From Patescibacteria group bacterium (GTDB lineage: Bacteria > Patescibacteriota > Minisyncoccia > Moranbacterales > DUUL01): a DNA stretch of 59,857 bases. The DNA lies in assembly GCA_015493225.1 (NCBI GenBank), contig WGDO01000024.1:1-59857 (forward strand). Reading direction: 5' to 3'. The translations under genes were made by a program, and so were the position numbers. The notes beneath the pieces are model-generated. The model was not told the origin of the DNA, did no database searches, and saw only the letters and a program-made list of their open reading frames with translations. Positions 9,443 through 51,394 of the stretch are shown piece after piece. Each line of letters opens with the position of its first letter. The stretch's first letter is position 1.

Positions 9443-9700
9443 TATTAGACCTCTCCGGAAACTATCTTCTACTGCAATTTTCCACTTTTGGTAAAATTTA
9501 TTTCCAGCCAGAGGCTGACCAACTTTGGAGCAAAAGTTTTAAGTGATTAATAATATGACATTTATCACAAATTGCTGGTCAACCTTTGGTTGGCAAACTT
9601 TTTCAACTTAGCTAAGGCTAAATTTTCTAAAGTTGTTCAATAAACTTTACTCAAAACTAGCAAATTTCGTAACGAAGCTAGTTTCCGGAGAGGTCTAATA
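9443..9700. mobile_element. 258-bp MITE-like element with 22-bp terminal inverted repeats (tattagacctctccggaaacta)
   Basis: 9443-9464 is the exact reverse complement of 9679-9700. The interior holds several small hairpins (cagcc-aga-ggctg, caacc-ttt-ggttg). No ORF. Confidence 0.65.
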
Positions 9701-34872: not shown

Positions 34873-34909
34873 GAAAATCTTAACAGAATGTTTTTGTTAA
34901 GATTTTTTT
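34873..34909 (+). terminator. Rho-independent terminator of the atp operon
   Basis: aaaatcttaac-(11 nt)-gttaagatttt followed by tttt. Confidence 0.75.
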
Positions 34910-34936
34910 GTTAATTTAATAAAATTATAGTATAAT
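34907..34936 (+). promoter_or_regulatory. Candidate promoter upstream of murG
   Basis: TTGTTA (34907-34912), 18-bp spacer, TATAAT (34931-34936). Confidence 0.45.
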
Positions 34937-34985
34937 AGGTATATAAAGAACTCATTTAAAGTAAACTCGTATATTAAGCATCTTG

Positions 34986-35083
34986 TCGAGCTTTTCGGGC
35001 ATTATTTTTTACCTGATGTTCGGACTTCTCCTTATTCTTAAGGCGTCGAACATGCGTCCGAAAATAACGCCCGAAAAGCTCGA
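34986..35083 (+). repeat. 98-bp long hairpin element, family H copy 1 (candidate structured RNA or MITE)
   Basis: Outer stem tcgagcttttcgggcattatttt / aaaataacgcccgaaaagctcga. Conserved internal loop ttacctg versus gcgtccg. Inner stem atgttcg/cgaacat. Confidence 0.6.
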
Positions 35084-35149
35084 TGAATAAAGGCGTTTAG
35101 CGATTTATTTTAGATGATTTAAAAGAGTTAATCTATTAAAGATAAAATA

Positions 35150-36262
35150 ATGAAAATTGTTTTAACTGGTGGTGGTAGTGGCGGTCATCTTTTTCCTTTG
35201 GTGGCGGTGTCTAATTTTTTACGAGAAAAATATTCTGATGATAAAATAGACTTTGTATTTTATGGTCCCAGGGGAAAGATGGAGGAAAGTATAATGCAAA
35301 AAAATAATATTAAACAAAGGCATATTGCTAGTGGTAAGCTAAGACGTTATTTTTCTTGGCAGTATTTAATTGATGCAATTAAATTTCCATTTGGTCTTTT
35401 GCAGACAATGTTTTGGCTGTTAATTGATATGCCCGATGTTGTTTTTGCCAAGGGTGGTTATGCGTCGGTACCAGTAGTTTTGGTTGCCTGGGCTTATCGT
35501 GTTCCTGTTTTAATTCATGAATCAGATGCACAACCAGGTATGGCTAATCAATTTATAGCTAACTTTGCTAAAAAGGTGGCCATTTCTTTTGAAAGGGCTA
35601 AAATTCATTTGCCGGCTAGTAAAATTATTGTAACGGGAAACCCAGTGTCTGAACGAGTTTTAAATGGTGATGCAGAGGAGGCTCGGCGAATTTTGGGAAT
35701 GAAAAAGGATGTCAAGCCGGTTGTTTTGATACTAGGAGGATCTCAAGGAGCAAGATTTATTAACCGTCAGATTTTAAAAATGTTAAAACCATTGTTGTCT
35801 GAGTTTCAGGTTATACATCAAACTGGTCAGAATAATTACAAGGAAGTAGTTGCTGAGGCACAACGAAAAGGATTTAAAATTGGAGCCAGTGATTATTACC
35901 CAGTTGCTTTTATGGATGAAGAAATAAAACATTTTTTCGCTTTGGCGGATGTGATAATTTCTCGAGCTGGGTCTACTTTCATTTCAGAGATTGCTGCCAA
36001 TGCTAAGCCTGCTATTTTAGTGCCCATAACTCATAGCGCAAACAATCACCAACGTTTAAATGCTTTCGAAGTAGCTCGTTTGGGCGGGGCAATAGTTTTG
36101 GAGGAAAATAATTTTAAAACTAGTTTAATTATGCTTCGGTTGCGACAATTAACTCAAGACGGAGAAATTCGTGATCGCATTATTCAAGGTGTTAAACAAT
36201 TTTATAACCCTCAGGCTACCGAACTTATTGCTAATGAATTAATTAAACTAGTGGAAAACTAA
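35150..36262 (+). CDS. murG: UDP-N-acetylglucosamine--N-acetylmuramyl-(pentapeptide) pyrophosphoryl-undecaprenol GlcNAc transferase
   Basis: TGGGSGGHLFP N-terminus, GGSQGA, and a HQ..NA-type C-terminal motif (NNHQRLNAF). Confidence 0.92.
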   Translation: MKIVLTGGGSGGHLFPLVAVSNFLREKYSDDKIDFVFYGPRGKMEESIMQKNNIKQRHIASGKLRRYFSWQYLIDAIKFPFGLLQTMFWLLIDMPDVVFAKGGYASVPVVLVAWAYRVPVLIHESDAQPGMANQFIANFAKKVAISFERAKIHLPASKIIVTGNPVSERVLNGDAEEARRILGMKKDVKPVVLILGGSQGARFINRQILKMLKPLLSEFQVIHQTGQNNYKEVVAEAQRKGFKIGASDYYPVAFMDEEIKHFFALADVIISRAGSTFISEIAANAKPAILVPITHSANNHQRLNAFEVARLGGAIVLEENNFKTSLIMLRLRQLTQDGEIRDRIIQGVKQFYNPQATELIANELIKLVEN

Positions 36263-50635: not shown

Positions 50636-51085
50636 TCAATAATTTTTCATTCTACGATCCATTTCTCTCTGTGCAGTTTGTTTTTTAAGTGTTTCACGCT
50701 TATCAAACTTCTTTTTTCCCTTGGCTAGAGCAAATTCTAACTTTATTCTATTCCTAGTAGTATACAACGAAAGTGGTACCATTGTCAAGCCCTCGGTTTT
50801 TGATTTTCCTAGTAGGTATTTTATCTCTTTTTTGTGTAAAAGTAGCTTGCGGGAGGCAGTTGGTTCGTAATCCTTGGGGTTTCCGGCAAATTTATAAGGT
50901 GGAATGTTAGCATTGGTCAAAAACAATTCATTGTTGTGAATGGTGACGAAAGATCCTTTGAGGGAGGCGTGGCCACTTTTTATGGATTTTACCTCAATTC
51001 CTTTCAATACTAAACCAGCCTCATATTTTTTAATTAGGTCGTAGTCAAAAGTTGCTCGGCGATTTTTTGCTAAAATTTTCGGCAT
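50636..51085 (-). CDS. smpB: SsrA-binding protein
   Basis: NRRATFDY...EAGLVLKGIEVKSI...LLLHKKEI. Confidence 0.95.
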   Translation of the reverse strand: MPKILAKNRRATFDYDLIKKYEAGLVLKGIEVKSIKSGHASLKGSFVTIHNNELFLTNANIPPYKFAGNPKDYEPTASRKLLLHKKEIKYLLGKSKTEGLTMVPLSLYTTRNRIKLEFALAKGKKKFDKRETLKKQTAQREMDRRMKNY

Positions 51086-51131
51086 GGTTTATTGAGTCAA
51101 TTCTTAGTTAATTTGCTTAATTTTTTGCTTA

Positions 51132-51230
51132 TCAAACTTTCCAGGTGTTATTTTTTACCTGATGTTTGACTCTTTTTTTAAATAACAAAACGTCAAACAT
51201 GCGTCCAAAAATAACACCTGGAAAGTTTGA
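51132..51230 (+). repeat. 99-bp long hairpin element, family H copy 2
   Basis: Outer stem tcaaactttccaggtgttattttt / aaaaataacacctggaaagtttga, 24 bp and perfect. It has the same internal loop tacctg versus gcgtcc as copy 1. Inner stem atgtttgac/gtcaaacat. Confidence 0.6.
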
Positions 51231-51394
51231 TGAAGTGTTTAATAAAAAAAATCTAAATAATCTTAATAATCTTAATTAATATAATCCTACCATTGAAATT
51301 AATAATTGACAAATATTTTAAAATGATTCACACTGATAGTGCAGAAAATTTTGGGGGAGTTCTTTATTAATAATTACAAAAAGGGGAATAAATT

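Follow-up and report, generated by a model that had tools for sequence, protein, structure and literature searches.

The stretch of DNA analysed here (the window) covers 59,857 nt of contig WGDO01000024.1 in assembly GCA_015493225.1, which belongs to a Patescibacteria group bacterium (Moranbacterales; DUUL01). The genome of this organism, hereafter G000, comprises 1.3 Mb in 87 contigs (labelled C5, C9, C31, etc.) and has a GC content of 33%. In the window, the gene murG, whose product contains Glyco_transf_28 and Glyco_tran_28_C domains, occupies positions 35150–36262 of the plus strand. A TATAAT −10 box is present upstream on the same strand (34931–34936) and, 17 nt upstream of this box, a −35-like hexamer, TTGTTA (34908–34913), is probably part of the resident murG promoter. 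The initial annotation had placed a hairpin of roughly 100 bp between this promoter and murG (34986–35083, copy 1) and had recognized a second one elsewhere in the window (51132–51230, copy 2). Both are present at these coordinates on the plus strand and have a common architecture, with an outer stem, a 6 × 6 internal loop, an inner stem and an apex.

In copy 1, which scores 102 bits with covariance model R1 (see below), the outer stem (34981–35009/35060–35084) contains a single A·C mismatch (35001/35068), the internal loop is formed by TACCTG (35010–35015) facing GCGTCC (35054–35059), and the inner stem (35016–35023/35045–35053) carries a variable apex. Copy 2, delimited by sequence and fold, has the same internal loop (51156–51161/51201–51206) between an outer stem at 51127–51155/51207–51236 and an inner stem at 51162–51170/51192–51200. 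Folded as RNA, the two regions reach −49.9 kcal/mol for copy 1 (34976–35093, z = −8.2) and −48.4 kcal/mol for copy 2 (51122–51240, z = −10.3), none of 200 shuffles being as good in either case; the minus strands of both hairpins fold equally well. The two copies have in common the core TTATTTTTTACCTGATGTT ... AACATGCGTCCRAAAATAA, and the corresponding two-part pattern occurs twice in the window for 0.00 occurrences expected. Their distal outer stems, previously described as completely different in sequence yet paired, are indeed paired, but they differ at 5–6 of about 16 positions, always by transitions that are each compensated on the opposite arm. A search of the whole window with Rfam at gathering threshold yielded only the tmRNA and three tRNAs, with no family for the hairpins. 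At an E-value threshold, nothing credible was obtained for region 34880–35180, where the top sub-threshold match was Phe_leader (26.7 bits for a threshold of 55).

The extent initially given to the hairpins turned out to be too short. Alignment of the G000 copies with 200-nt flanks revealed that conservation reaches about 35 nt past the hairpin on either side, so that the conserved unit corresponds to positions 34948–35121 for copy 1 and to about 51094–51265 for copy 2. The ends were defined by a single rule, the first base being the one that precedes AAC... and the last one the A that follows ...GTT. The rod-shaped element delimited in this way is 160–174 nt long and is bounded by imperfect terminal inverted repeats, 5′-(G/A/T)AACTYATYTA...TRAATGAGTT(A/G)-3′. 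Since its two ends, GAACTYATYTAGGG... and ...CCCTRAATGAGTTA, pair with each other, the entire 170–174 nt can fold into a single rod; the terminal helix (helix 1) is paired in 85% of cells across 34 copies, with double changes at six pairs. No ORF of at least 40 aa was detected inside the element in the listed copies.

Copy 1 is a complete element of 174 nt (positions 1–171 of the profile HMM) predicted to fold as one rod of −68.7 kcal/mol. Its 5′ terminal inverted repeat, which forms the outermost helix arm according to alignment and pairing, is GAACTCATTTAAAGTAAA (34948–34965), and its 3′ terminal inverted repeat, as aligned, is TTTATTTTAGATGATTTA (35104–35121). Comparison of the flanks identified an AAA triplet on each side (34945–34947 and 35122–35124). 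The element starts 11 nt after the TATAAT box and ends 28 nt ahead of the murG ATG (35150), in agreement with the location between promoter and gene proposed initially; the putative 5′ leader of murG contains the whole copy, and the putative promoter lies outside of it. Copy 2, also on the plus strand, is about 172 nt long and has decayed terminal arms (115 bits with the covariance model, only positions 22–167 of the HMM), and its flanking triplets, ATT and ATA, have two of their three positions in common. A distance of 8 nt separates its start from the initiation codon of smpB, a divergent gene (50636–51085, minus strand).

The two hairpins of the window are members of a larger family. A fuzzy search recovered about 16 copies in G000, from which covariance model R1 was built, and this model detected 17 copies, with deleted copies besides. 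The search for additional copies suggested by the initial annotation was thus positive, in G000 as well as in relatives and metagenomes. We compared 27 species-level genomes of the same family, among which G001 and G002 are from the same genus as the window genome and G003 from another genus. Only G003 (10 copies), G002 (5–6 copies) and G000 carry many copies, the other 24 family genomes having none or one to two weak matches (one to two in five genomes, none in G001). When a strict core pattern was searched in one genome per GTDB species, only G003 (‘Candidatus Moraniibacteriota’) and G002, both already known as carriers, were returned. A metagenome scan retrieved 32 stretches, mostly from one sample series, with about 20–29 further copies; these contigs are 85–93% identical to G000, which makes orthologous sites comparable. 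No match was obtained by blastn against phage and plasmid collections. The record of G002 (CAZRER01) is titled ‘uncultured Bdellovibrionales’, yet its GTDB genus is that of the window genome and it shares the element family, suggesting that the title is probably a mislabel.

The flanks of the element provide direct indications of mobility. A 3-bp target duplication (TSD) without fixed sequence directly abuts the ends: of 21 copies, 14, 17 and 17 have the same base on both sides at flank positions 2, 3 and 4, compared with background matching at the neighbouring positions (6 and 7 of 21). Combining 5′ flanks with 3′ flanks taken from different copies (20,000 permutations) yielded a mean of 29.4 ± 4.2 matches for 61 observed (P < 5e-5). 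The duplication was also found in 14 new full-length copies with nhmmer-set ends (a profile HMM of the full element placed the ends automatically on metagenome copies): seven exhibit perfect triplets (AGA, AAA, AAT, ATA, TAT, TAA and ATT) and seven match at two of three positions. Moreover, at least three clean filled/empty pairs exist between G000 and sister strains, the empty allele retaining one triplet. The AGA site is empty in G000 (...tagtAGAgttaaat... at C82:5231) and filled in L088 (...tagtAGA[172 nt]AGAgttaaat...), the ATT site is empty in G000 (...gaaATTatg... at C71:17668) and filled in L092 (...gaaATT[element]ATTatg...), and the ATA site is empty in G000 (...aagATAattaac... at C37:45104) and filled in L099 (...aagATA[element]ATAattaac...). 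More filled/empty sites relative to G000 correspond to C43, C53 and C82:32970. These sites indicate that the element is mobile and, with the TSDs, that the third option mentioned in the initial annotation, the hairpin of a mobile element, was the right one. Deletion derivatives are present in G000 (C35:39491 and C81:6870) and, as 74–103-nt minis, in G003, whereas elements with the same termini and other interiors are found in G042 (142–161 nt) and G001 (219 nt), with TSDs ATG, AAA, GAT and AGT.

The identification of the two hairpins as the cores of a MITE is, taken alone, highly probable. The explanation taken as a whole, in which both form the middle of a MITE, a non-autonomous DNA transposon of about 172 bp, is very likely correct. 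For its mobility, such an element would depend on a DDE-type transposase supplied in trans and acting by cut-and-paste with 3-bp staggered cuts. We searched for an autonomous partner by its ends in G000 and the 27 family genomes, and none of the elements detected encloses a gene; only MITEs, deleted copies and the relatives with other interiors were obtained. The profiles PF01609 (DDE_Tnp_1) and PF13359 (DDE_Tnp_4) have no match in the carrier genomes G000, G002 and G003, and the genes matching the rve-type profile PF00665 in these genomes include no convincing partner. Because the completeness of these MAGs is 86–96% and assembly often loses IS copies, this failure is weak negative evidence. 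Contig C9 of G000 (3.4 kb) carries an IS3-family element (L123:747–2199) whose inverted ends, TGAAATA(A/G)GTTGAC, are separated by about 1.45 kb and which has a 126-aa orfA and a 257-aa orfB containing a rve domain. We rejected this element as the partner, its ends (TGAAATAAGTTGAC) being unrelated to those of the MITE.

Other repeats are dispersed in the same genome. A second, unrelated MITE family of G000 has 18-bp terminal inverted repeats (AGACCTCTCCGGAAACTA), a length of about 160 or 250 nt, AAT/ATT triplets and at least 15 paired copies. It is present in the window (9447–9696) and at C5:5949, C7:38142, C10:10086, C29:14565, C33:12384, C42:2603, C72:1325, C76:1672 and 5769, among other sites. 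A further repeat exists in three copies (C33:9533, C78:10416 and C87:12426) that contain GGACAAGTTC...GAACTTGTCCAGGCTTCGGGGGTTTTT... and form long GC-rich hairpins.

The position of the copies relative to promoters follows a simple rule. The 5′ end could be defined for 39 distinct copies. In 27 of them, a TATAAT-like hexamer (at least 5/6 matches to TATAAT, with A2 and T6 required) ends 7–14 nt upstream, most often 10–11 nt, the element being always in sense, and in 23 of these 27 the distance from the −10 box to the element start is 10–12 nt. Such a hexamer is found at 9.6% of random intergenic positions of G000 (binomial P = 4e-19). In every copy, the arm ‘GAAC...ATCTAGGG’ is located on the promoter side. 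The duplicated triplet does not include the −10 box, and the spacer sequences that follow this box are unrelated from one copy to another, indicating that the promoter is resident and not carried by the element. Judging from its position, the triplet would correspond to roughly +2 to +5 of the transcript. Copy 2 is an exception, without a canonical plus-strand −10 box; the nearest candidate, TAAAAT (51071–51076), is 17 nt away. The initial annotation had associated a plain MITE with TSD-like flanks and randomly oriented copies; the flanks are as expected for such an element, but the copies are consistently in sense behind −10 boxes.

Several controls bear on the origin of this rule. In the second MITE family of G000, a −10 box is present at that distance in about 2 of 30 flank orientations. 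The elements with the same ends and other interiors (G042 and G001) and the core-less minis of G003 obey the rule and have 3-bp duplications, so that the placement rule is independent of the core. Finally, the recent insertions, for which an empty site exists in a sister genome, are all at the canonical position. Taken together, and as far as genome comparison can tell, the controls and the recent insertions favour a property of the integration machinery over selection for a 5′-terminal hairpin. We tentatively propose, as a plausible reading, that the family is defined by its ends rather than its core and could be moved by a transposase that integrates at promoters, 8–11 bp past the −10 hexamer (roughly +2 to +5), in one fixed orientation, where the open-complex bubble ends on its downstream side. 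The putative enzyme could read the −10 sequence itself, or the RNA polymerase/sigma bound there. With integration just past the −10 box and in this orientation, each copy would become the first ~170 nt of the mRNA, folded as a 5′-terminal rod. At two empty sites of G000 (C71:17634–17703 and C37:45071–45137), the native leaders have 22–31 nt from the −10 box to the ATG and no clear Shine-Dalgarno sequence, and an insertion at these sites makes the leader about eight times as long.

The start codon of a same-strand gene is typically found 22–30 nt downstream of the copies. The downstream genes in G000 include infA-rpsM, murG, xth, clpP, groES, map and genes encoding an ADP-forming acetyl-CoA synthetase, a response regulator, a thioredoxin-like protein, membrane proteins and glycosyltransferases, and those in relatives include gpmI, htrA, ruvA, groEL and clpB. 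These genes are functionally unrelated and have no common theme. In the groES leader of G000 (C72:~1100–1150; L013/L038), a −35 box (TTGACA) located immediately ahead of the MITE copy overlaps with a CIRCE-like inverted repeat (TTAGCACCC-N-...GATTGCTAA), so that a classical HrcA operator and the MITE share one leader. In G003, a 74-nt core-less mini (L109, C5:77107–77180) follows a TAGAAT −10 box and precedes a tRNA gene, indicating that the family lands ahead of RNA genes too.

At murG, the element has a patchy distribution. An ortholog of copy 1 is present in L120, from a strain with a 95%-identical MurG, and a degenerate relative in L121 (89% strain), whereas no counterpart was found in a 86% strain nor in relatives at 73%, 67% and 57%. 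The element is absent upstream of murG in eight relatives, in which synteny and sequence are too diverged there to define empty sites. The murG leaders of G001, G002, G003 and L122 are without the element.

The pairing of the stems is strongly supported by covariation. In the alignment of 34 distinct copies, 92.2% of the pair cells are standard and 22 of the 45 pairs have double-sided changes. The covariation score was reached by none of 500 shuffles, and pairing drops to 31–50% when the partners are slid. The stem differences are therefore compensatory, as the initial annotation had assumed. These compensated differences probably arise because the element is a quasi-palindrome, in which template switching or hairpin repair would transfer mutations from one arm to the other, and/or because only paired variants would remain mobile. 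Arm-to-arm events at the DNA level can be seen in some copies. In C31:65231–65335 (G000, L016), the 3′ strand of the loop carries CAGGTAG, complementary to the 5′ strand, instead of GCGTCC, which produces a perfect duplex; this looks like a template-switch ‘palindrome perfection’ event. In two metagenome copies (L095:1444–1550 and L096:276–382), the core is flipped relative to the terminal arms and the promoter, which would be the product expected from recombination between the two arms. The initial annotation had interpreted the covariation and the conserved loop as the signature of a functional structured RNA. The pairing is real; an RNA function is not established by it, given these arm-to-arm events at the DNA level and an excess of G·U pairs (see below) that has a mutational alternative. 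Identification as a MITE thus explains away the apparent ‘covarying RNA motif’ and calls for caution, since quasi-palindromic DNA repeats can mimic RNA covariation.

The strong covariation, the conserved unpaired core and the fixed place between promoter and start codon were the basis of the main reading of the initial annotation, a dedicated and non-mobile cis-regulatory RNA (riboswitch-like or protein-binding leader), which would have been spread by duplicated promoter-leader modules. We consider this reading extremely unlikely. It is contradicted by the 3-bp direct repeats at the ends and by the clean empty sites in sister strains, where the single retained triplet argues against precise deletion of a non-mobile sequence. 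Spreading with the promoter is difficult to reconcile with −10 boxes that lie outside the triplets behind unrelated spacers. In addition, the distribution is patchy even within the genus, presence at orthologous positions varies between sister strains, the downstream genes are unrelated, deleted and core-flipped copies persist and Rfam gives no match. The idea of a 5′ leader thus stands as regards position, the copies being in sense behind −10 boxes (27 of 39), and is not supported as stated as regards a regulatory-RNA function.

The most conserved part of the element is its centre. In copy 1, the invariant columns and those conserved at ≥90% cluster in two segments, TTATTTTT-TACCTG-ATGTTCGG (35002–35023; helix, loop strand, helix) and GTCGAACAT-GCGTCC-GAAAATAA (35045–35067). 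Across the family, this core, TTATTTTC-TACCTG-ATGTTTGAC/GTCAAACAT-GCGTCC-GAAAATAA (as RNA, TTATTTTC-UACCUG-AUGUUUGAC/GUCAAACAU-GCGUCC-GAAAAUAA), is near-invariant, whereas the surrounding stems vary. The natural reading of the near-invariant asymmetric 6 × 6 loop and its flanking helices is a candidate site for sequence-specific recognition by a protein, on DNA or RNA. Conservation is lower at the termini than at the centre, whereas a simple model of transposase binding would predict the opposite; this counts against the explanation that we prefer.

We compared the core with known elements. In integron attC sites, the hairpin has R″/R′ boxes (RYYYAAC...GTTRRRY) at its base, and cassette arrays are found next to intI. 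We rejected this identity, as the basal helix is variable here, the conserved boxes are internal (TTATTTTC/GAAAATAA and ATGTTTGAC/GTCAAACAT) and the copies are dispersed singly behind promoters. The hammerhead core (CUGAUG...GAAA), the kink-turn or C/D box, the XerCD/CTX-type forked hairpin and the IHF site, compared by eye, were rejected because of a misfit in helix topology or consensus.

A broader possibility is that the element is a recombination site acting as single-stranded DNA, of the attC, CTX-attP or REP-REPIN kind, read by a tyrosine recombinase or a HUH (RAYT/IS200-like) enzyme. The core does resemble two 8–9-bp boxes around a 6-nt unpaired spacer in a long hairpin, pairing is conserved while sequence varies, and the bias towards G·T-type mismatches on one strand would fit a strand-specific DNA fold. 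Against this, the constant 3-bp TSDs and the terminal inverted repeats are indicative of a DDE enzyme that makes staggered cuts in both strands, core-less relatives still carry TSDs, and there are no cassette arrays. The mobility of attC, REPIN and IS200/IS605 elements is not known to leave a duplication of this kind. We therefore view a single-strand site as very improbable.

More weight can be given to a reading in which the family spread as a MITE and the persisting copies were kept because the transcribed rod serves the host, although we consider it rather unlikely. In one conceivable variant, the 5′-terminal hairpin would protect the mRNA from 5′-end-dependent decay; in another, the internal loop would be a binding or cleavage site for an RNA-binding protein or a double-strand-specific RNase, which could confer a shared post-transcriptional control on ~15–30 unrelated genes. 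The copies are always in sense and start at about +3 to +5, so that the helix would lie within a few nucleotides of the RNA 5′ end, and a nearly invariant core amid variable stems is also what such a role might produce. The downstream genes include groES, groEL, clpP, clpB, htrA, infA, map, xth and ruvA; on the other hand, they have no common theme. Selection for a useful 5′ hairpin could yield the same placement pattern as targeting, which is deduced from positions, but same-end elements with different or deleted interiors obey the position rule as well. Furthermore, the element comes and goes between strains that are 85–93% identical and, upstream of murG, is absent in both closer and more distant relatives.

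Two lines of evidence on selection are ambiguous. On the sense strand, G·U cells outnumber A·C cells (134 vs 75, the cells not being independent); the ratio is 81:41 for the terminal helix, 46:30 for the outer stem and 7:4 for the inner stem. This excess, which would be expected if the rod serves the host as a transcript, can fit either selection on the transcript or a transcription-linked C-to-T bias on the non-template strand, and may thus be mutational. The comparison of orthologous copies is also mixed. In three orthologous pairs, the central 107 nt have 0, 2 and 7 changes for flank divergences of ~6%, 8–15% and ~5–7%, respectively. The first two pairs, with 0 and 2 changes per 107 nt against 6–15% in the flanks, hint at constraint in place and a host-level function. 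The third, copy 1 and its ortholog in L120, has evolved at about the flank rate, with one of its seven changes in the loop, which speaks against retention for the host.

If the placement rule reflects the integration mechanism, this family would represent a start-site-directed bacterial transposon and a possible promoter-tagging tool. It would also provide a route by which ultra-small CPR genomes rewire their 5′ leaders, converting short leaders into structured ones of 170 nt. If the core reflects selection, it would be a protein-recognition site that dozens of housekeeping genes (murG, groES, clpP, infA, map and others) have in common in their leaders. Further work should concentrate on the oriented placement close to promoters and on the invariant core.

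We found nothing relevant in the literature on MITEs in Patescibacteria, and the closest points of comparison come from other organisms. Like the family described here, the Correia elements of Neisseria (CREE/NEMIS) are non-coding MITEs of 100–160 bp with terminal inverted repeats and a short TSD, present in many copies in small genomes, often located 5′ of genes and whose mobility is seen by strain comparison (PMC3184786). They are co-transcribed with neighbouring genes as long hairpins, and, as here, they have a conserved central motif of a protein-binding type, which in their case is an IHF site (PMC3184786). However, Correia elements contain promoters of their own and generate a TA duplication, whereas in the present family the promoter lies outside the element, the 3-bp TSD has no fixed sequence and the ends are unrelated. 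The fixed distance of 10–12 nt past the −10 box and the single orientation are not described for Correia elements. The ERIC (IRU) sequences, of about 127 bp, are likewise imperfect palindromes located in transcribed intergenic DNA, MITEs with terminal inverted repeats and target duplications, with a well-conserved centre and a patchy distribution among relatives (PMC3184786). Unlike our element, they are flanked by TA, lie mostly between operon genes or at 3′ ends and have no reported tie to transcription start sites; the two share no sequence similarity.

The REP/REPIN sequences resemble this family as hairpin repeats with compensated stem changes, REPINs being hairpins of about 100 nt in which two units face each other in inverted orientation. 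They are associated with a single-copy HUH (RAYT) gene and are not known to have terminal inverted repeats with a TSD of fixed length; the family described here differs from them by its 3-bp TSD. A functional parallel for the placement itself is offered by the yeast LTR retrotransposon Ty3, which uses its own integrase and inserts within a few bases of Pol III transcription starts, directed by the transcription machinery. The likeness is functional only, since the present element is a bacterial DNA MITE for which targeting is deduced from positions. Compared with these systems, the element itself is an ordinary selfish repeat of a familiar kind, and it is its near-universal oriented placement after a −10 box that is unusual.
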